Below, one piece after another: positions 3,444 through 15,377 of a stretch of DNA of 24,106 bases. The notes under the pieces were generated by a model. That model made no database searches, was not told the DNA's origin, and saw only the letters and a program-made list of their open reading frames with translations. Both the position numbers and the translations under genes were made by a program. The first letter of the stretch is position 1; the number at the start of each line of letters is the position of its first letter. Source of the DNA: Candidatus Gottesmanbacteria bacterium. Lineage in GTDB: Bacteria > Patescibacteriota > Microgenomatia > 2-02-FULL-39-11. The DNA is taken from positions 1 to 24,106 of the forward strand of contig JACQJU010000051.1 in assembly GCA_016204905.1 (NCBI GenBank), written 5' to 3'.

Positions 3444-6155
3444 ATGTACTACCAAAAAAGTATTGCTGAAATTTTAAAAGAACTTCAAACTCACCCCAAC
3501 ACTGGGCTCACTTTCCCCGAAGCCGAAAAGAGACTCAAGAAATATGGCCCCAACATCCTACCCTCCAAAAAACCACCGTCACTTATCTGGAAATTTCTTT
3601 CTCAGTTCAAATCCTTTTTAGTCATCCTACTTCTTGCCGCCACCGCTCTCTCTGCTTTTTTGGGCGACTTTTTAGATGCCATTGCTATCTTTGCTATTGT
3701 TATACTAAACGCAGCAGTTGGCACTCTACAAGAACTAAAAGCAGAAAGAACACTATCGCAATTAGAACAATTAGACCTACCTGAATCATTAGTCTTAAGA
3801 GACGGTCATTTAGAAAAAGTACCCACCGACCAAATAGTTTTAGGAGATATTATTATTTTAGAAGAAGGCGTCAAAATACCCGCCGATGGCCGGATTATCG
3901 AAAATTTTTCTTTATCTATCGATGAAAGCATACTCACCGGAGAATCCCAGACCACTAACAAAATAACCGGCGAGCTTACTACTGATAATATTCCCCTAGG
4001 TGATCAAAAAAATATGATTTTCAAAGATACCCAAGTGGTTTCTGGACGAGGCAAAGCAGTAGTTGTTGCCACTGGATCATCTACCGAAATAGGCAAAATC
4101 GCCTTGAGTCTCGAGGAGGCGCCGGATGAATTATCCCCCTTGTCTGAAGAATTAGATAGAGTAGGCAAAATGCTTACAGGAGCCGTTATTGCTATTGCTA
4201 TTGTCATCTTTATCATTACTTCAATAAGAGGTGTAAAACTTATCGATAGGATCCTGATTGCTGTAGCTCTATCAGTAGCAGCCATTCCCGAAGGACTTCC
4301 AGCCATTGCTACTATCACTCTTGCCCTTGGTGTCGAAAGGCTAGCCAAGAAAAAAACTGTCACCAAAAAGTTAACAGCCGTAGAAACACTCGGTGCTGTG
4401 AAAATCATCGCTACCGATAAAACAGGCACCATCACCGAAAATAAGATGAATGTCACCGATATCGTCACTGCCGATGGAAAACACTTTCAAATAGAGGCAG
4501 AGGGTTACAAAACCAAAGGCACTTTCTTTTCTGACCAAAAACCCATCATCCCTCAAGAATTTAAACAAATTTATGAACTCCTAGAATGTGCTATTTTAGC
4601 CAACAATGCTTTTGTCAAGCTTCAACAAGTTCAGCTTGACACTGAGCAAGGTCGAAGTGTCAAGAAAAAAGATGACACTTTTGAGATTGTCGGCGACACC
4701 ACCGAAGCAGCCTTGCTTATAGCCGGAGAGCGAGCAGGTCTGCCAACTGATAAAATCAAATCCCAAAATAGCCGCATTTTTGAAATGCCTTTTTCCGCAG
4801 ATCGCAAAATGATGAGCGTTGTCGTCAAAATCGATGACACCGATGATGTTTTCATTTTTGTCAAAGGAGCACCTGAGATAGTCATGAACCAAACTACTTT
4901 ATCTTCTCTAGAGAAAACTAAATTTGCCAGAATAGTCAATAACTTAGCCTCCAAAGGACTCCGTACTTTGGCCCTGGGGAGACGTAAACTCAGCAAAAAG
5001 GAGGTCAAGGATGTTTTGGAAAATAACCATTTACCAGAAGACAATCTAGAATTTTTAGGCATTATGGGAGCCAGAGATACACTCCGTCTGGATATTAAAG
5101 ATGCCCTCTTACGGGCAAAATCTGCCGGAATAAAAACCATCATGATTACCGGAGATCATATCAGCACGGCCATATCTATAGGCCTGGAAAGCGGTATTAT
5201 AGAAAAAGGAAATCAAGCCATCGCCGAAAAAGATTTTGAAGATTTGTCTAGAATTCAAATTGCCCACCTCATCAAAACCGATAAATATCGTATTTTTGCC
5301 CGAGTCTCCCCACTGGGCAAACTGAAACTCATTGAGTCGATCAAACTTCTCCCCGCTACCCGTGTCGCAGTCACCGGAGATGGCGTCAATGACGCTCCAG
5401 CACTAAAAGTAGCTCATGTGGGACTAGCTATGGGGTCGGGCACTGATATCGCTCGTGAAGTCTCAGACATGGTTATAACCGATGACAATTATTCAACTAT
5501 CATTGAAGCCATCAAAGAAGGCAGGATCATCTTTGCCAATCTCATCAAATTTATCAGATACCTCATCTCCTGTAATCTGGCCGAAATAGTGGTAGTAACC
5601 CTTGCTGTAATATTTGGCACCCCACTTCCTCTTATCCCCATCCAGCTTCTCTGGATCAATCTCATCACCGATGGTCTTCCTGCCCTTGCCCTCGGCAATG
5701 ATCCGCCTGAATATGACGTGATGCTCAAACCTCCCAGAGCCGGCAATACGCTGCTTCACAAAAGGAGATGGACATTTATGTTCACCGAAGGACTAGTCAT
5801 GGGCATCTCTGTTTTTATGCTCTATCTTTTTTCTCTCTTACGTTATGATCTTCTTACCGCCCAAACTATAGCCTTTACTACTCTTTGTATCACCCAACTC
5901 ATCCATGCTTTATCCAACCGAAGCACCAGAACCTCTTTATTTATATTGGGATTTTTCAGCAACAAGCATCTTATTTATGCCATCATCTTTTCTTTCTTTT
6001 TACAGGTCCTAGTCATCTACACCAACTTTGGCCAAATTATATTTAAAACTGTCACCCTGAACTTTTATCACTGGATAGCTATTATGCTCGTATCGTTTAT
6101 ACCTTTCTTCTTCGTCGAGCTAAAAAAATTAGGCCTCAAACAACTGAAAATATAG
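3444..6155 (+). CDS. P-type cation-transporting ATPase, P2A (Ca2+-ATPase-like), 903 aa
   Basis: TGES, PEGLP, DKTGTITEN, KGAPE, MITGD, TGDGVNDAPAL and LLWINLITDGLPALAL motifs. Confidence 0.96.
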   Translation: MYYQKSIAEILKELQTHPNTGLTFPEAEKRLKKYGPNILPSKKPPSLIWKFLSQFKSFLVILLLAATALSAFLGDFLDAIAIFAIVILNAAVGTLQELKAERTLSQLEQLDLPESLVLRDGHLEKVPTDQIVLGDIIILEEGVKIPADGRIIENFSLSIDESILTGESQTTNKITGELTTDNIPLGDQKNMIFKDTQVVSGRGKAVVVATGSSTEIGKIALSLEEAPDELSPLSEELDRVGKMLTGAVIAIAIVIFIITSIRGVKLIDRILIAVALSVAAIPEGLPAIATITLALGVERLAKKKTVTKKLTAVETLGAVKIIATDKTGTITENKMNVTDIVTADGKHFQIEAEGYKTKGTFFSDQKPIIPQEFKQIYELLECAILANNAFVKLQQVQLDTEQGRSVKKKDDTFEIVGDTTEAALLIAGERAGLPTDKIKSQNSRIFEMPFSADRKMMSVVVKIDDTDDVFIFVKGAPEIVMNQTTLSSLEKTKFARIVNNLASKGLRTLALGRRKLSKKEVKDVLENNHLPEDNLEFLGIMGARDTLRLDIKDALLRAKSAGIKTIMITGDHISTAISIGLESGIIEKGNQAIAEKDFEDLSRIQIAHLIKTDKYRIFARVSPLGKLKLIESIKLLPATRVAVTGDGVNDAPALKVAHVGLAMGSGTDIAREVSDMVITDDNYSTIIEAIKEGRIIFANLIKFIRYLISCNLAEIVVVTLAVIFGTPLPLIPIQLLWINLITDGLPALALGNDPPEYDVMLKPPRAGNTLLHKRRWTFMFTEGLVMGISVFMLYLFSLLRYDLLTAQTIAFTTLCITQLIHALSNRSTRTSLFILGFFSNKHLIYAIIFSFFLQVLVIYTNFGQIIFKTVTLNFYHWIAIMLVSFIPFFFVELKKLGLKQLKI

Positions 6156-7882: not shown

Positions 7883-8452
7883 TTACGGCGCGCACAAAGC
7901 CAGATCGGCACTGTTGATGATGCCGTCACTATTTAAATCATAACTGATCTGATAATTGGGACTAGCAGGCACTGCCCCCATCCTTTTGGCTACCTCATTA
8001 CAGGGTATTTGACCGCCACCTCCTGGAGTAGGACTAGACTGTATACCCAGAGTCGGACTCGGCAGTAAAGTGTTGGCACCCGATGTAGTAAACGTCCAGG
8101 GTACACCAGCATTGTCATAAGTCTTATCTCCTATTTTTATCTGGAAATAATAAGTCGTCGTGGGAGTAAGTAACGATAGTACTATACTATGACTTGTCGT
8201 TTCAGTATCACTAGCAAAAAGAGTCAGATTAGAAGCATCAGTACCATACTCAAGTAGGGCCTGTACCGCTTCAGCAGTAGTAAAAGTTATTGTCGCTGAG
8301 TTACTCGTCACTGCTGTAATTTGAACATTTTCTGGACTGCTATTCCCAGCTTTGGCCAAAAGATTATATATCCTATCCCCAGCAATTAGGACTATCCCTA
8401 GAGTCAGAAGAAGTCCAAATATCAGTACAATCGGTTTCGTATATTTACCCAT
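7883..8452 (-). CDS. Membrane-anchored FN3/purple-acid-phosphatase-N-like domain protein with C-terminal dockerin-like Ca-loop
   Basis: N-terminal TM; SATITFTT...LEYG...HSIVLSLLTPTTTYYFQI; C-terminal YDLNSDGIINSAD. Confidence 0.8.
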   Translation of the reverse strand: MGKYTKPIVLIFGLLLTLGIVLIAGDRIYNLLAKAGNSSPENVQITAVTSNSATITFTTAEAVQALLEYGTDASNLTLFASDTETTSHSIVLSLLTPTTTYYFQIKIGDKTYDNAGVPWTFTTSGANTLLPSPTLGIQSSPTPGGGGQIPCNEVAKRMGAVPASPNYQISYDLNSDGIINSADLALCAP

Positions 8453-8455
8453 AAA

Positions 8456-9103
8456 TTATAGTAGAATCAATGCCAATCCAATAACAGTCAATAAAATTCC
8501 CGCTCCCACGGCTATTACCGTCACTTCAGTTGAACCAGATCTAGGCAGTCCCGTAGGATCACTAGTACCCGTAGTTATAGGCGTAGCATCAGCTGGACCT
8601 ACCGTATAAGATGCTGTTATTAGACTATCACAATCTATTATATCCGACGAATCACTTCCTTTTATTATGTTAGAATCAGCTTTACTTCCAGCAACACATT
8701 CCAATGATACCGTCGAAGTACCATTGGCCTTGGCGCTAAATTCTATTGTAGCCAAAACTCCTGTTCCACTTTTTAGCTCTGTACTACCAGGATTCTCAAA
8801 TCCCGAAATAAGATATTTATTCGTACCAGTGATGGGATTAGCCGCAAAGGAGGTATAAAAACCACCGTTGGTAGGAACTGAGTCAATAGACAATATATTG
8901 GGATCATAGACTATCATAGCATCAGCACCCGATGTCTGTTGATTTACTGTATTGATATTGATTGTGACTGTCAATTTTTGACCCACAACAACACCCAAAG
9001 ATGTCGGCTCAAAGGATAGAGTTTGAGCATAAGCTTTCTCTTTTACTAAATTATGAAGTAATAAAAATATAAGAAATAAAAATAGTATTTGTACAATCTT
9101 CAT
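8456..9103 (-). CDS. Cohesin-domain protein with signal peptide and LPxTG-like (LPRSG) C-terminal anchor
   Basis: TLSFEP...LTVTININT...GADAMIVYDPNIL...GVLATIEFSAKANGTSTVSL; LPRSG followed by a TM helix. Confidence 0.85.
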   Translation of the reverse strand: MKIVQILFLFLIFLLLHNLVKEKAYAQTLSFEPTSLGVVVGQKLTVTININTVNQQTSGADAMIVYDPNILSIDSVPTNGGFYTSFAANPITGTNKYLISGFENPGSTELKSGTGVLATIEFSAKANGTSTVSLECVAGSKADSNIIKGSDSSDIIDCDSLITASYTVGPADATPITTGTSDPTGLPRSGSTEVTVIAVGAGILLTVIGLALILL

Positions 9104-9774
9104 CTATTTATATTTATAGTGGCCTCCCCGACATTTCCTAATATATTATTAGATGTGGAGTTTTGTATGATATTAGACAAGTCCTTCCCAGTTGGGCTGA
9201 CCAGGAAACTAATAGTCGTCTGACCAACCTGCTTAGCTTTCAGCTGCAAAGTCGCAAAAAGTATCTCGCCGGCAAGCGGCGTCGGTTGAGGCTCAAAAGT
9301 TACTCCAGTAATATAGATCCTACTCTTATCTTTATCCACAACATTTTTGAGATAAGAAGGAAAAGCATCGCCGAAAGAAGCCTTACCACCAACTACTTCG
9401 ATATAAGCGGGATCAAAAGATAGTACAGCATCAACACCATCCAGTGAGTAAGAAGAAGCAACCAACATAATATCTAATGTTGCGCTTTGTCCTAATTTTA
9501 GGTCTAGACTAGCGGGAACTAAATATAGTCTCCCCTCCTTAACATTACTCACCTGCTGATTCTGAGTAGTAGTTTCTGTAATAGTTGGTGCTGGCGTTTT
9601 TCTATTGGCTAACCTTATATAGACTACCACCAGAAGAAGTATCGCCAAAATACCCACCAATATATATATTTTTTTAGTCACAATAGACTTAGGCACGTCT
9701 GGTGGTGAATTTTGGTCCATATTTGGACTCATATCTAGAACAATAACTTGATCTTGATTGTTTTCTGTATTCAT
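9100..9774 (-). CDS. Single-pass membrane cohesin-domain protein
   Basis: TM then LYLVPAS...LDGVDAVLSFDPAYIEV...FATLQLKAKQVGQTTISF; ATGA overlap with the next gene. Confidence 0.85.
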   Translation of the reverse strand: MNTENNQDQVIVLDMSPNMDQNSPPDVPKSIVTKKIYILVGILAILLLVVVYIRLANRKTPAPTITETTTQNQQVSNVKEGRLYLVPASLDLKLGQSATLDIMLVASSYSLDGVDAVLSFDPAYIEVVGGKASFGDAFPSYLKNVVDKDKSRIYITGVTFEPQPTPLAGEILFATLQLKAKQVGQTTISFLVSPTGKDLSNIIQNSTSNNILGNVGEATININR

Positions 9775-9786
9775 TTTATAATTTTA

Positions 9787-9826
9787 CATTTCATTGTAAC
9801 ATTGGAACATTGTCCATTGTTGCATT
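9787..9826. repeat. CATTG repeat tract with period about 8 in an operon spacer
   Basis: CATTG at 9792, 9800, 9808 and 9815. Confidence 0.7.
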
Positions 9827-9827
9827 C

Positions 9828-11825
9828 TCACTCATCATCCGGCTTCGTCGACAAAGTGACTACCATAATCCCATTATCCGCGGCATTTACTATATTATTA
9901 TAGTCCAAATCTGCCACTATCAAATCTTCCCCTGTCGTTTTACCCATTCTACTTTTTAGCAGTGAGACATCGGCAGCATTCACTATACAATCTTGTCCTA
10001 AATTACTAGCTGGATCTGGCAAATCTCCTCCTGCAAGAGGCTCAGCAGTCCAGTCAAAATTTTGGGCGGCAGGATTATTATTTTGGAGAACAAATTTATT
10101 TACCATCTTGGTACTTCGCTGCTTTTCCCCTTTAACTGATAATGAATAACTTTTATCAGCACTTGCATAAAGTAGAGTTACCCAACCTCCTTGCTCTACA
10201 GGAACATCCACCGGATCAATCTCCTGATATAATACTTTAAAGGATGTGCCTTCTTTAGGATAGTAGACTCCATTACTGTCTGCTGACATGATGATATCCT
10301 TATAGAAATACTCACCAGTCCCAGGTGCTTGGCAGGAACCCTCCGCAGCACCGCTTTCTGCGGCCACTACCAAATCAACAATCTTGAGTCTCACTTTGAT
10401 ATCTGGAATTCCCTCTGCCCCTTGTATTTTTATGCCAAACCGCACCTGAGGATTAACTGCAGCGCCACCAGTAGGCGTAGGCGTCGCTGTCAATGTCGGC
10501 CCACCTGGTGTAATTGTCGGTGTCGGTGTTCCAGTCGCTCCACCTCCGCCTCCAATATTTATCGTCAAAGAATCTGTATCACCTATAGGTAGATCAAATT
10601 TTGTCAGTTCATCATCATCTCCAGGTGTTGGTGTCGGTCCACTTGGCGTATTAGTTGGTCCAGCTGTAGGAAAAACTACATTTCCGGTAAATATAAATTT
10701 ATCGATACCCACATAATTTCCTGTTGAGGGACTATTATGTTTGCCTACCACATAGACCCTCACTCGATAAGTGGCATTTTTATCCAGATTATCAAAAAAT
10801 ATTTCATCCGTAGTATAAGCCACTTTCGCGGCATAAAGATTTAATCGTTTCCTGGTATTAGTTTTAGCAGTAAGATTCCTTAGAACTACTCTCACTCGAC
10901 CAGCATCGGGAGATTTTCTCAAGATTACCTTGACACTTTTTGCCTTAAACTTGATCCGGGCATTATTTTTCTTCACATTAGCTCTCTTATAGGTAGTACT
11001 TCCATCCTTACCCGAGGACCACGTACCCTTATATTTCACTTTTTTATCATTTTCTTGGATTGTAGTAGTACCTTGACCCGCTTCAAACACCGCCACCCCC
11101 GCGTCTTCTGCATCTAGAACCAACTCATCAGCCGCTTCCTCAGCCTCAGTTATACCATCATCGTCAGGATCCTCGGTAGGAGTCGCGGTGGGAATTCTGG
11201 TAGGAGTATTGGTGGGATTGGCAGTTCCTGCAAAGATAACAAATTTATCAAATCCGACCCATCTATCTGATGAAGCACTATTTTTAGTACCGAGGACTTT
11301 TACCCTGACTCTATAAACCAAAGAAGGATCTAAATTCGTATAGGTATATGTATCAAATAATGCCGCTCCTTGTTTATAGAGGTCTTTAGTTTGAGATACC
11401 GCAACAGCTCCGCCTATTTGTTTGATTATGATTTTTGCTTTACCGGCATTATTAGATTTCCTTAGCGTTACGCTTACCTTGTTAGTGCCGGTAAATTTTA
11501 AGCGCACTGAATTTTCAGGACTACCCGTTTTGGAGGAGGCATAGGTCCCATCTCCCCCAGGTTGATTCTTAATCCAGGTAGAATTAGACCCAGACGGTTT
11601 ATATTTCACCGAAGAAGAATTATCCTGATATGTCCCAGGCTTCACTGCCGGGACAGCCGCATCTTCTCTATCCAAAGCGCCTTCTTCGCTAGATTCACCC
11701 GTAGTAAGACTTTCTTGAGCAGTCACGATACCAGCCGATCGCCCCCCAACCACCAAAAAAGCCATAAAACATAATACTATCAAATTAAAAATTATAAATA
11801 ATCTAGATTTTATTTGTTTTTTCAT
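9828..11825 (-). CDS. Surface protein with two tandem CBM-like beta-sandwich repeats, acidic and PT linkers and a C-terminal dockerin-like domain; probable start ATG 11825
   Basis: Repeat YQDNSSSVKYK...VGFDKF / IQENDKKVKYK...VGIDKF; C-terminal DCIVNAAD...ADLDYNNIVNAAD. Confidence 0.8.
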   Translation of the reverse strand: MKKQIKSRLFIIFNLIVLCFMAFLVVGGRSAGIVTAQESLTTGESSEEGALDREDAAVPAVKPGTYQDNSSSVKYKPSGSNSTWIKNQPGGDGTYASSKTGSPENSVRLKFTGTNKVSVTLRKSNNAGKAKIIIKQIGGAVAVSQTKDLYKQGAALFDTYTYTNLDPSLVYRVRVKVLGTKNSASSDRWVGFDKFVIFAGTANPTNTPTRIPTATPTEDPDDDGITEAEEAADELVLDAEDAGVAVFEAGQGTTTIQENDKKVKYKGTWSSGKDGSTTYKRANVKKNNARIKFKAKSVKVILRKSPDAGRVRVVLRNLTAKTNTRKRLNLYAAKVAYTTDEIFFDNLDKNATYRVRVYVVGKHNSPSTGNYVGIDKFIFTGNVVFPTAGPTNTPSGPTPTPGDDDELTKFDLPIGDTDSLTINIGGGGGATGTPTPTITPGGPTLTATPTPTGGAAVNPQVRFGIKIQGAEGIPDIKVRLKIVDLVVAAESGAAEGSCQAPGTGEYFYKDIIMSADSNGVYYPKEGTSFKVLYQEIDPVDVPVEQGGWVTLLYASADKSYSLSVKGEKQRSTKMVNKFVLQNNNPAAQNFDWTAEPLAGGDLPDPASNLGQDCIVNAADVSLLKSRMGKTTGEDLIVADLDYNNIVNAADNGIMVVTLSTKPDDE

Positions 11826-11826
11826 A

Positions 11827-12432
11827 TTAAGGTGTAGGCGATGGTGTAGCCGTGGGATCACCAGATCCAGGCTCTATTCCCACCACTTGTAACAACCGCA
11901 CCCCATTGATATCAGTAAGTTCGTCAGCAGTAGGATAGCGTATAATACCATCGCCATCCTCCTTGGCTTTAAATGTGATTGTTGCCATCAGCATCTCTCC
12001 ACTTGATAATGCTGGTGTTAAGCGGCGGGAAACCAATACTAAACGTAGGTAATTAAATTGGTCATTATATGGCTGATCCACCTGTGTCAGTATGACATCA
12101 GTAAAAGGCTTATTACTACCTACTTCTGGTGCGATCGTAGGTGCTGTATAAAATTTACTTTTATCATAAAGTATCCGGAAATCGACTCCTGAGACTTTTA
12201 CATTATTATTAGTAGATTTTAGTTTGGCTTTTACCGTAAAAGTTTCATCCTTATCAGGACTATTATTACTACTTTCCAATATAAAATCAGCTTGTCCGGC
12301 AAGAGCCGCTCTTGGTCTTATCTCCTGCTGCTGTCTTGTCAAGTAAAGAGCAATAGGCAACGAAACCAGCAAAAGTAGCAGGAGTAATATTCCTATTTTC
12401 TGCTGTCTAGTTAAATTTTTTAGATATTTCAT
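11827..12432 (-). CDS. Membrane-anchored cohesin-domain protein ending in a short PT linker; start ATG 12432
   Basis: TM plus QQQEIRPRAA; VSGVDFRILYDKSK...MATITFKAKEDGDGII. Confidence 0.85.
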   Translation of the reverse strand: MKYLKNLTRQQKIGILLLLLLLVSLPIALYLTRQQQEIRPRAALAGQADFILESSNNSPDKDETFTVKAKLKSTNNNVKVSGVDFRILYDKSKFYTAPTIAPEVGSNKPFTDVILTQVDQPYNDQFNYLRLVLVSRRLTPALSSGEMLMATITFKAKEDGDGIIRYPTADELTDINGVRLLQVVGIEPGSGDPTATPSPTP

Positions 12433-12445
12433 CAAAGTTCTTTCT

Positions 12446-12514
12446 TCTAATTTCTAACCTCTAATTTCTAAGCTCTAATAGCCAATGACTAATGACTAAT
12501 GACTAATGACTAAT
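12446..12514. repeat. Heptamer tandem tract in an operon spacer
   Basis: TCTAANN x5 (12446-12480), then AATGACT x4 (12484-12511). Confidence 0.9.
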
Positions 12515-12515
12515 C

Positions 12516-14333
12516 TCACTCATCATCCTCATCTATCTCATCAGCTTCGCTTGTTGCCTTAAGGCTCGTCGCATTTCTTCTCCACTTTTCAAAATCTGCC
12601 AAATTCACCAAAAAAGTATTTGGGTCTCTTTTGGCTCCACCATCGGCACAAACACCATTGGCGTTTCTTCTCCTATTGCGATTTGGCACCGTTCCAAATT
12701 GCTTTTTGAGGCGATTGAAGTCTTTGGCAGTGACCGTACCATCACAATTATAATCTCCCTTTCCTCTCCCTTTACCTTGGTAACCAGTCACAAACTCATT
12801 GCACTTCTTGGGGCAAACTTGCCCTGTGGGAAATGGTGTTGGAGTTACCGCCGCTCCTCCGCTACCACCCCCGCCCCCAGAGGCGCAAGTTCCAGCCGGT
12901 GGAGTCGCCCCATTATTTAAAACTGAATATACCGCACGGCAAGCATCCGCTGATCCCCAAGCATACTGAGTAGTGATACCCGGAGCGCTATCATCAGCAC
13001 TACTCTCCAGTGTACTTTTTACCTGAGTATTACTCAGAGATGAGTTAGCCGCCAATATCAGTCCTGCCACGCCAGCTACCTGTGGTGTCGCCATGGAAGT
13101 GCCATAAGAATAAGCATAATTTTTTTGTGGCGTCGGTGTTGGAGGTTGACCAGTAATAAGACTCGCCGGCCATAAAGACAGTATGCCCCCGGCAGCACAG
13201 CTTGCATCACTGCCCGCTGGACAATTGAAATATCCTCCAGGTGCCGCTATATTTACCCAACTACCATATTCAGAATAGGGAGCAAGAGTTCCATCCGTTT
13301 TAGTAGCCGCTACAGATATCACATTGGGAGAGGCAGCCGGATAGACTTTGGGATTAGAAGCATAGGATTTACCATTGCTCGTAGTATAGGCACAGCCCTC
13401 ATTATTGTCATTATTGGCAGCACCGCAATTACCCGCTGCCGCTACCAAAAGAGCCCCACTATCCCAAGCAGATTGCATAGCATTGTTTATCATGGTTATA
13501 ATCTCTGAATCTAAGCTATTTTCTATCTGCCCCCAGCTCATATTGATCACTTTGGCTCCCCTAGAAGCGGCATATTTTACTCCTTCCAGTGCTACATCTA
13601 TACCGCCTCCGCCATCATTATCCAGCACTTTTACGCTCATCAGTTTCACTCCCCATCCTACTCCCGCTATACCTTTACTATTATTGGTAACAGCTCCTAT
13701 GATCCCCGCCACATGCGTACCATGCCCAGCATCATCTGCCCGTGGTTTAGTTTTATTACAGACTACCCCATTGCCTTCCGCCACGCATCCCACATAGTCA
13801 TCATCGGCTATCTTACCGGCCAAATCAGGATGATTTACATCGACTCCCGTATCCACTACCGCAATTTTGACATCATCAGTCTTATCATTTACATCTCCCA
13901 ACAGATCCCAGGCACCATTTGTATTCGCTCCTACCTTCATAGCTCCCAGGCCCCAAAGTTTATTTATATATTCATCATCTACCGTCTTAGTAGCAAAAAC
14001 CTTGGGCACCCCTCCTGCATAAGCTACGTTGGGATCGGCTTTTGCCGCCGCTATAGCCGCAGCAACATCTTCCACTCTATAAACTACGGCATCGCCATTA
14101 CCCGCTAGTCCTCCCGCATAACTGGACTCGGCTATCCTGGCACTTACACCAAGTATCATTTCGGCATTCGTAGTACTTTTAAATTTTACTATGATTTTAT
14201 TTGGAACTTGAGGAGCTGATGGCTCATATGTAGGAGTAAAAACGGTTATCTGGGCGATGGAGATATTTCTCGATAAGAGAATAAAGGAACAAACCCACAC
14301 CAAAACCGTGGCAAATTTTAGACGCTTAGACAT
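12516..14333 (-). CDS. S8 subtilisin-like serine protease with signal peptide, propeptide and C-terminal dockerin-like domain, 605 aa
   Basis: VVDTGVD, HGTHVAG, AAGN and GTSMATPQVAG catalytic motifs; GDYNCDGTVTAKD. Confidence 0.95.
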   Translation of the reverse strand: MSKRLKFATVLVWVCSFILLSRNISIAQITVFTPTYEPSAPQVPNKIIVKFKSTTNAEMILGVSARIAESSYAGGLAGNGDAVVYRVEDVAAAIAAAKADPNVAYAGGVPKVFATKTVDDEYINKLWGLGAMKVGANTNGAWDLLGDVNDKTDDVKIAVVDTGVDVNHPDLAGKIADDDYVGCVAEGNGVVCNKTKPRADDAGHGTHVAGIIGAVTNNSKGIAGVGWGVKLMSVKVLDNDGGGGIDVALEGVKYAASRGAKVINMSWGQIENSLDSEIITMINNAMQSAWDSGALLVAAAGNCGAANNDNNEGCAYTTSNGKSYASNPKVYPAASPNVISVAATKTDGTLAPYSEYGSWVNIAAPGGYFNCPAGSDASCAAGGILSLWPASLITGQPPTPTPQKNYAYSYGTSMATPQVAGVAGLILAANSSLSNTQVKSTLESSADDSAPGITTQYAWGSADACRAVYSVLNNGATPPAGTCASGGGGGSGGAAVTPTPFPTGQVCPKKCNEFVTGYQGKGRGKGDYNCDGTVTAKDFNRLKKQFGTVPNRNRRRNANGVCADGGAKRDPNTFLVNLADFEKWRRNATSLKATSEADEIDEDDE

Positions 14334-14687: not shown

Positions 14688-15377
14688 TTAATCTGACAAT
14701 TCGAAATGTGTACGTAAGGAACCATCATCTTCTATTTGTTGCGCGATTATATATTGTACTGTAAATGCCACACCATACAACTCTCTCAAAAATTCTACTT
14801 CCTCAAAACAAGGGTAAGGAGATACATAGAGACTTTCCTGTAGTCGATATAGTCCCAGCTGTTCCAGACGCAGACGGAAAATATCCCTCACTCTTTTATA
14901 TTTATTTGGTATATCGAAAGCTACTAGTCTCCACCTCTTATCCCACTTCTTGGGCTTTACCTGTTTCATGGTTTCCAATTGATAATTCAACGCCTTGATT
15001 CTGCCATTTTTTCTTATGGTTACCTTCACCGTACCATCATCTTGCTCTTTTATAGTGACATACTTTTGTTTAGCCATTTGCGTAAGTACACTTTTAGTAC
15101 GCCATCGGCTAAATTTACCGCCTCCGATCAAAGTCAAACCAATTGCTGGACCAGCCCCAGGAAAAGCAAATACTAATCCTAAGACTCCAGCAGCTGCCAG
15201 GACTTTTAGGAGGGTACGAACTTTGGGATATAAAGTTTCCTTTTTCTCTTCCTCAACTGGCTGTTTAAATATCTTTGCTGCCTTCTCCCAATCGATATGG
15301 GCATAGGGATTAGCCACACTGACTCTTTTTTTCCTTACTTTTATTGATCTAAGTATTTTTCTTCGTGCACTCATCAC
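14688..15377 (-). CDS. PaaX-like winged-helix / Cas2-like-fold regulator (CPR type, not CRISPR-linked)
   Basis: WDKRWRLVAFDIP...RDIFRLRLEQLGLYRLQESLYVSPYPC. Confidence 0.85.
   Translation of the reverse strand: MMSARRKILRSIKVRKKRVSVANPYAHIDWEKAAKIFKQPVEEEKKETLYPKVRTLLKVLAAAGVLGLVFAFPGAGPAIGLTLIGGGKFSRWRTKSVLTQMAKQKYVTIKEQDDGTVKVTIRKNGRIKALNYQLETMKQVKPKKWDKRWRLVAFDIPNKYKRVRDIFRLRLEQLGLYRLQESLYVSPYPCFEEVEFLRELYGVAFTVQYIIAQQIEDDGSLRTHFELSD

Follow-up and report, generated by a model that had tools for sequence, protein, structure and literature searches.

A putative cohesin-dockerin surface display operon with three single-cohesin anchors in a Gottesmanbacteria genome

The window analyzed here is a stretch of 24,106 nucleotides (contig JACQJU010000051.1, designated C136) from the Candidatus Gottesmanbacteria assembly GCA_016204905.1, and the subject of this study is an operon at positions 7883-14333 of it, which encodes three cohesin-like proteins (CohA, CohB and CohC) and three candidate cargo proteins with dockerin-like C-terminal tails. 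The operon consists of six open reading frames on the minus strand with no sizeable interval between them. In operon order, these encode an S8 subtilase of 605 amino acids (12516-14333), CohA of 201 amino acids (11827-12432, or 12435), a big cargo protein of 665 amino acids (9828-11825), CohB of 224 amino acids (9100-9774), CohC of 215 amino acids (8456-9103), and an FN3 cargo protein of 189 amino acids (7883-8452). The longest reading frame of the big protein starts at GTG 11861, and the ATG at 11825, from which its length is given, is the likely start. The intergenic spacings, read directly, were 83, 1, 53, -4 (an ATGA overlap) and 3 bp, which bore out the six co-oriented and tightly spaced genes described in a first-pass annotation made from the sequence alone. 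Scanning for promoters and terminators gave nothing above shuffled expectation, and NCBIfam returned only sub-threshold subtilase models.

The source assembly amounts to 918 kb in 142 contigs and is 75% complete, and the sequencing runs behind it are groundwater metagenomes. The assignment of the DNA to the Microgenomates within the Candidate Phyla Radiation (CPR), which had been suggested from the letters, is sound because the named homologs belong to Candidatus Gottesmanbacteria and Roizmanbacteria and the genomes of the relatives measure 0.7-1.8 Mb. A search for the locus among named genomes gave two loci only, one from Roizmanbacteria and one labelled Gammaproteobacteria, the latter probably a mislabelled metagenome-assembled genome.

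CohA, CohB and CohC each contained exactly one cohesin and no other domain. With a gathering cut-off of 24.1 bits for Pfam Cohesin (PF00963), CohA scored 27.0 bits (domain at 11953-12255, minus strand, as are all coordinates in the operon) and CohC 37.2 bits (8702-8989, with two invariant Cys residues); the genome-wide scan gave 26.4 and 38.8 bits. CohB had no match in Pfam. Its cohesin region (9139-9546) was supported by BLASTP, by a profile of the CohC family and by its Atlas model: CohB and CohC were 30% identical over 132 amino acids (E 3e-9), the profile built from 14 CohC orthologs (A1) matched CohB at 2.4e-12, and the CohB model (predicted local distance difference test, pLDDT, 0.76) resembled cohesin clusters with template modelling (TM) scores of 0.53-0.65 and a feature score of 0.96. 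PF00963 was present in 30-100% of the members of these clusters, in a structure check that covered CohB alone. Against the PDB, profile A1 found only weak matches, which were ScaB type II cohesins (7e-4). CohB is a paralogue of the two proteins matched by Pfam, and its predicted fold is cohesin-like.

The anchors of the three proteins differ from one another. At the N-terminus of CohA, a transmembrane helix is followed by RQQQEIRPRA, and this arrangement is conserved across CohA-type N-termini. CohB starts with a polar segment of about 35 amino acids followed by a transmembrane helix. CohC carries a signal peptide and, at its C-terminus, the predicted sorting signal LPRSG with a hydrophobic stretch (8459-8548), as seen in the alignment of 14 sequences. 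LPRSG and the hydrophobic stretch were kept in 11 of the 14 close orthologs, the others having LPVTG, VPRSG or PVAG, and distant orthologs contained LPQTG, LPKTG or LPRTG. Four sortases are encoded in the genome (Pfam Sortase). The three cohesin-like proteins of the first-pass annotation, as well as the membrane helices of CohA and CohB and the signal peptide and LPRSG of CohC, were all confirmed in this way.

The motif of CohA, written RQQQ[ED]IRP[RK]A for the family, lies directly after the transmembrane helix at residues 31-42 (window 12310-12345) and was also found at other loci (L050, L052, L008, L010, L012, L028 and L035-L039). It occurs only once in the genome, by which a general export signal was ruled out; the motif could be a processing or recognition site. 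A fourth single-cohesin protein of the genome is encoded on another contig (C97:907-1500, locus L049) and has an N-terminal transmembrane helix and a Pfam Cohesin score of 41 bits. Its gene is followed by genes for a 903-amino-acid protein without a Pfam family and for a ClpB-like AAA ATPase.

The three cargo proteins are a subtilase, a twin-CBM-like protein (CBM, carbohydrate-binding module) and an FN3 protein, as originally annotated. The S8 subtilase contains a signal peptide, a weak match to an N-terminal prodomain (Fervidolysin_NPro-like, 19 bits), the catalytic domain at amino acids 153-460 (Pfam Peptidase_S8, 193.8 bits, 5e-57), and a C-terminal dockerin-like module. Alignment with thermitase (1thm) showed that VDTGV, HGTH and GTSMATP were kept, so that the Asp, His and Ser motifs are intact. 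Pfam called no glycoside hydrolase family in the six genes, again as annotated, and the S8 peptidase is the only enzyme of the operon.

After its signal peptide, the big protein has twin jelly-roll domains, one at about 11226-11648 and the other at about 10683-11078; another beta domain, likewise conserved, lies at about 10050-10451. The twin domains are paralogous and 37% identical to each other (E 1e-25). AlphaFold2 modelled the beta domains as beta sandwiches with pLDDT of 80-90, and Foldseek matched them with the tandem CBM structure 4xup (CBM22-1/CBM22-2 of Xyn10C), xanthan lyase and the CBM-like domains of Cry/Vip3, at a probability of 1.0 and with TM scores of 0.1-0.27, which are low because the query is a multi-domain protein. 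Atlas rows for the protein repeatedly named CE2_N, and Pfam called no CBM family in it. On these models, the description “twin CBM-like” is fair at the level of fold. What is conserved throughout the family is a core of the third beta domain and the dockerin, and the N-terminal part ranges among orthologs between 438 and 1065 amino acids.

The FN3 protein contains an FN3 domain of the purple-acid-phosphatase-N type at about 8078-8341 (Pfam Pur_ac_phosph_N 34 bits, fn3 22.8 bits). The protein is conserved across the class. Its N-terminus is a hydrophobic segment with a conserved AxA-type site, which suggests that the segment is cleaved. If it were left uncleaved, a complex of the FN3 protein with CohC would tie the membrane to the wall. 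Outside the operon, a 578-amino-acid secreted protein is encoded at C78:758-2494 (L048), with a Glyco_hydro_cc score of 17.7 bits, below the cut-off, and with a single calcium-type loop DLDLDGQFTATD and a hydrophobic tail at its C-terminal end. It may be a further loop-tagged cargo.

Dockerin-like features were found at the C-terminus of each cargo protein. Across the whole 918-kb assembly, Pfam Dockerin_1 (PF00404) gave three matches only, all of them tails of the cargo proteins and all within 6.4 kb, a clustering that is far from chance. Alignments of the tails from orthologous loci were then used as profiles against PDB sequences, and dockerins outranked EF-hand proteins in four such searches, three of them followed to E 1 and the fourth (A7) among the 20 matches listed.

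The tail of the big protein (9846-10034) has the sequence GDLPDP...QDCIVNAADVSLLKSR ... ADLDYNNIVNAADNGIMVVTL, followed by the conserved TLSTKPDDE. It contains two segments, IVNAADVSLLKSR and IVNAADNGIMVVTL, and the duplicated IVNAAD-helix units are evident in the sequence. With the profile of this tail (A2), PDB dockerins came first at 2.7e-6 to 1e-3 with alignments across both F-hand segments, the top match being 8x39, and the homologs P0019, P0020 and P0023 carry a precomputed PF00404 assignment. A full two-segment dockerin is therefore well supported for this tail at the level of sequence. TLSTKPDDE (9831-9857) is one of two short acidic tails that follow the modules and are kept in orthologs, the other being EADEIDEDDE of the S8 protein (12519-12548).

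The tail of the FN3 protein (7886-8011) runs from a helix through one calcium loop DLNSDGIINSAD to a second, short helix, and Cys residues flank it on both sides. Its profile (A4) found dockerins first (1ohz_B, 2.5e-8) through the one loop, which matched each of the two dockerin loops in turn, and also picked up EF-hand proteins at weaker E-values. The search results support a putative half dockerin module. The Cys pair of the tail is present in the family of the window, and the tails of other families are free of Cys. Covariation of this pair with the two Cys residues of CohC was considered and rejected, since the pair of CohC is universal and that of the tail is family-specific, which makes the two independent.

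The module of the S8 protein (12549-12821, approximately amino acids 505-595) contains a canonical calcium loop and helix GDYNCDGTVTAKDFNRLKKQF, two Cys residues invariant in the family, and a divergent second segment, NANGVC...VNLADFEKWRRN. A profile of five S8 tails was weak (best PDB match 1.3e-3), and a homolog search restricted to the region added one protein only. When 1.84 billion representatives were searched exhaustively by profile, the S8-type module was detected in 683 proteins at E<=1e-3, in many of which the whole module of about 90 residues stands at the C-terminus of varied cargo; among ten sampled cargos, four were S8 proteases, and none of the ten was called by Pfam Dockerin_1. 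The profile from 33 sequences (A7) had the consensus GDANCDG.VD..DY.IW..QFD ... N.NANF.C.EGN..TYFVDL.DFE.WRR, and all 20 of the PDB matches listed for it, up to E 1, were dockerins, the best being 2y3n_B at 1.8e-4, with alignments over the first loop and helix only. That the S8 tail is a dockerin is thus plausible but unproven. The S8-type module represents a large unannotated C-terminal family with two invariant Cys residues (P0025-P0061 among its members) that Pfam Dockerin_1 misses.

The operon is conserved among relatives. The order S8-CohA-big-CohB-CohC-FN3 was seen at L010, L012, L028, L035, L038 and L039, and at L036 and L037 a 238-amino-acid protein with two dockerin loops occupies the place of the S8 protein. 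Small genomes of other families have only CohC, with LPxTG, and the FN3-dockerin protein (L029, L030 and L046). In a sample of the class, the CohC profile matched 48 of 61 genomes, and within the family it matched 19 of 20; in 25 of the 26 genomes of the class with a full-length FN3 match the FN3-dockerin gene lay directly downstream of CohC on the same strand. The first-pass annotation had named conservation across Microgenomates as a check on its reading; the gene order proved to be conserved in the family. At the level of the phylum, 54 of 201 sampled genomes had a Pfam Cohesin match over the cut-off (1 of 14 control genomes), and in four genomes outside the class a dockerin-type tail adjoined a cohesin.

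Adjacency was also specific to the subtype of the modules. In 7 of 11 loci, the gene before CohA encodes the loop D[AY]NC[SD]G, with either the S8 protease or the 238-amino-acid protein as the cargo; before CohB, 13 of 16 loci have a gene for a loop of the form D.x[YF][DN]; and after CohC, 17 of 22 loci have an FN3 gene with the loop D.N.DG..NS.D. L050 and L052 are an independent check on this adjacency: these contigs were found via the S8-type module alone, and in both a CohA-type cohesin was the next gene. The order at L050 was a gene with the S8-type module, a CohA-type cohesin and a second module-bearing protein.

In more distant members of the family, the protein encoded in the position of the big protein has a CohA-like cohesin at its N-terminus and a dockerin at its C-terminus (L035 3846-5309; L036 8264-10207; L037 7522-9477; L038 7649-9706; L039 8166-10052), and these versions of the big protein begin with the RQQQ[ED]IRP[RK]A motif. 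Judged from their domains, chains or adaptors would be possible at L035-L039, unlike in the window.

Taken together, these results suggest that the operon probably serves cohesin-dockerin display of a non-cellulolytic kind, in which three anchors each pair separately with a cargo and no single scaffold is formed. Domain content, anchors and gene order were observed directly. Three cognate pairs are proposed because each dockerin subtype adjoins its own cohesin subtype. Each cargo protein would be exported, and its C-terminal calcium-loop module would plug into the single cohesin encoded beside it. The S8 protease would bind CohA and the twin-CBM-like big protein would bind CohB, each held by the N-terminal membrane helix of its cohesin protein, and the FN3 protein would bind CohC, whose LPRSG would allow a sortase to attach it to the wall. 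On the resulting surface, the protease and the FN3 module would be displayed together with a protein that probably binds a glycan or ligand, possibly for feeding on external protein or for attachment to surfaces or partner cells. That the cargo proteins are exported, that they bind in a calcium-dependent way and that they pair as described is inferred.

The protease might have a different task. It could be a maturation or turnover enzyme for the products of the operon instead of an outward weapon or feeding enzyme, and the candidate targets might be RQQQEIRPRA of CohA, the prodomains, or the linkers of the cargo proteins. Such a role would agree with the strong conservation of the CohA motif and its uniqueness in the genome, with the conserved place of S8 at the head of the operon in the family, which it keeps also at L035 and L038, where it has no dockerin-like tail, and with the processing role proposed for cellulosomal S8 proteases with double dockerins (PMC12484212). 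At L036 and L037, however, CohA and the remaining genes are present with the 238-amino-acid double-loop protein in place of S8, and the minimal CohC-FN3 pairs at L029 and L030 have no adjoining S8 gene. We consider a maturation role of the protease rather improbable.

Several results weigh against the display of three cohesin-bound cargo proteins. With a gathering cut-off of 22.9 bits for Dockerin_1, the single sequences scored 15.7-18.9 bits for the S8 tail, 16.9 bits for the FN3 tail and 13.4 bits for the big protein, all below it. The FN3 tail has one calcium loop only. No dockerin is matched by the second half of the module in the S8 protein; when the profile of the S8-type module was compared with that of the big dockerin (A2), the outcome was negative, with a probability of 2%; and Foldseek found nothing significant for the S8 tail, its sole match being a dockerin at E 5.6 that we did not count as evidence. 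In the AlphaFold2 models, the S8 tail had a pLDDT of 52, too poor for use, and the big dockerin had 42-54, so that the beta domains of the big protein were resolved and its dockerin was not. CohC of the window lacks the K/R tail that follows the sorting signal in most orthologs, and the S8 proteins of L035 and L038 are without a dockerin-like module. A look-up of sequencing runs that was biased to DNA, and was not a search aimed at RNA, turned up no RNA run. The support for the pairing itself consists of the conserved adjacency of subtypes only.

In view of these results, part of the earlier description of the tails has to be revised. Three dockerin-like tails had been claimed: that of the big protein held as a full module with two segments, that of the FN3 protein was reduced to a one-loop half module, and the fold of the S8 tail was left unconfirmed by a model of too low quality. 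In the proposed check by profile, Cohesin exceeded its cut-off in CohA and CohC and Dockerin_1 stayed below its cut-off in all three tails; in the structure models, CohB resembled cohesin clusters and the tails of the big and S8 proteins were predicted with low confidence.

An explanation without any docking would make the tails EF-hand-type calcium-binding loops that stabilize their proteins, and the proteins of cohesin fold ordinary Ig-like envelope proteins, with shared export or regulation as the reason for their neighborhood. The sub-threshold Dockerin_1 scores, the single loop of the FN3 tail, the weaker EF-hand matches of its profile and the poor structure models of the tails would all suit it. 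It would not be expected, however, that dockerins come ahead of EF-hand proteins among the matches listed in four profile searches, that the tails are always C-terminal, or that tail subtype and neighboring cohesin subtype stay matched while the cargo varies. Moreover, the three tails occur nowhere in the genome but at the locus where two of its three Pfam cohesins are encoded together with their paralogue CohB. We regard stabilizing loops as very unlikely to account for the operon.

The first-pass annotation had interpreted the six proteins as one cellulosome-like scaffolded complex that would attach to the envelope or matrix of a host and break it down by proteolysis. Its component parts are the same as those of the three-pair system favored here, and CPR bacteria are widely thought to be episymbionts. 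In addition, a transposon sequencing (Tn-seq) study of a Saccharibacterium found a dockerin-domain protein and an FN3 protein among the essential envelope proteins and speculated on the targeting of host glycans (PMC10633639), and the presence of cohesin and dockerin on one protein at L035-L039 would permit chains there. The term “cellulosome-like scaffold” was not supported for the window, where no protein has more than one cohesin, none joins cohesins with a substrate-binding module, and none carries both a cohesin and a dockerin. Three dockerin subtypes beside their own cohesin subtypes better fit parallel pairs than a single assembly. As to the host, nothing in the analysis points to a host or a substrate, and the dockerin-tagged S8 protease of cellulosomes has instead been proposed to act in component processing or nitrogen recycling (PMC12484212). 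One host-directed complex is therefore considered unlikely. The Pam pilus was also tried as the identity of the operon and was rejected, as the paper on that pilus mentions neither cohesin nor dockerin.

Two genes in the neighborhood of the operon recur at orthologous loci. A P-type cation ATPase (Cation_ATPase_N/C, E1-E2) is encoded on the plus strand at 3444-6155 of the window, 1-3 kb beyond the FN3 gene, and likewise near L008, L010 and L012; that it supplies calcium for the dockerin loops is only a guess. A small PaaX_M/Cas2-like protein adjoins the operon in the window (14688-15377, minus strand), at L010 (11447-12115) and at L011 (3860-4528). Its gene lies upstream of the operon in the window and downstream in the Gottesmanbacteria-type scaffold, and the protein may be a local regulator.

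Much of the diversity of bacteria belongs to the CPR, or Patescibacteria, and little is known of the way in which these cells construct their surfaces and make contact with others. If it is conserved as it seems, a plug-and-socket system would offer a concrete and testable entry to surface display in bacteria that cannot yet be cultivated. The parts of this operon are small, soluble and expressible in E. coli. The protease, the lectin-like protein and the FN3 protein are, in addition, candidates for surface cargo. The repertoire of cohesin-dockerin modules would gain a one-loop dockerin and a Cys-stapled family with several hundred representatives, both of which are missed by current domain libraries, and the two variants could be of interest for protein engineering with orthogonal pairs of cohesin and dockerin. 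More broadly, we tentatively suggest, as a possibility that is still doubtful, that Microgenomatia and the wider Patescibacteria generally attach secreted enzymes and adhesins via orthogonal pairs of single cohesins and dockerins. The three types found here would then not cross-react, one being a previously unrecognized disulfide-stapled dockerin family and another a one-loop half dockerin with a sortase-linked partner, and the near-universal CohC-FN3 pair would be a core element of the envelope for an episymbiotic lifestyle.

Dockerin-tagged S8 proteases and sortase-anchored single cohesins are already known from cellulosomes (PMC12484212). A search of the literature on cohesin and dockerin with CPR taxon names found no description of operons such as this one, and the only published mention of such proteins found for Patescibacteria was the Tn-seq study of a Saccharibacterium, in which a dockerin-domain protein and an FN3 protein were among the essential envelope proteins (PMC10633639). 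The locus is best filed as putative cohesin-dockerin surface display in a non-cellulolytic CPR lineage. The operon encodes no multi-cohesin scaffoldin and no dockerin-bearing glycoside hydrolase, and its CBM-like domains are located on a dockerin cargo, which separates it from a cellulosome.

The closest likeness to CohC is ScaE of Ruminococcus flavefaciens, a single cohesin attached by sortase via LPXTG, whose partners include a cysteine-peptidase-like protein (PMC12484212; PMC3573020). Both proteins combine one cohesin with a signal peptide and a C-terminal LPXTG-type signal, predicted in the case of CohC, both are encoded in gene clusters, and both systems have a peptidase-like protein among the docked or putatively docked cargo. 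ScaE, however, is the base of a multi-cohesin cellulosome (ScaB/ScaA) with glycoside hydrolases, neither of which is present in the operon, whereas the operon has two further cohesins anchored in the membrane by N-terminal helices, and the likely partner of CohC has a half dockerin only, without an X module.

For the protease, the counterpart is the S8 protease of Clostridium (Acetivibrio) thermocellum with tandem double dockerins (PDB 8x39/8x3a; Chen et al. 2024 in PMC12484212), which is proposed to process cellulosome components or recycle nitrogen. Both are subtilisin-family proteases with C-terminal targeting of dockerin type, a putative one in the S8 protein of the operon. The C. thermocellum enzyme docks onto the scaffoldins of cellulosomes and has two dockerins, both canonical, whereas the S8 protein of the operon has only one module, which is Cys-stapled, divergent and not called by Pfam, and a single-cohesin neighbor of its own.

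Two further systems resemble the operon in part. OlpA, OlpC and SdbA of C. thermocellum are single-cohesin surface anchors bound to the wall by modules of the S-layer homology (SLH) type. As proposed for CohA, CohB and CohC, a small single-cohesin surface protein tethers one dockerin partner there, but the anchoring is by SLH modules, in contrast to the transmembrane helices of CohA and CohB and the sortase signal of CohC. In the glycosidase toxin complexes of Clostridium perfringens, non-cellulosomal cohesin-dockerin contacts link large secreted glycoside hydrolases to one another, and structures from these complexes (PDB 2ozn and 2jnk) were weak matches in the profile searches with the tails of the big and FN3 proteins. 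These complexes share with the proposed display system of the operon the cohesin-dockerin assembly of secreted proteins outside plant cell-wall degradation, and differ from it in that the operon has dedicated small anchors encoded beside each cargo.

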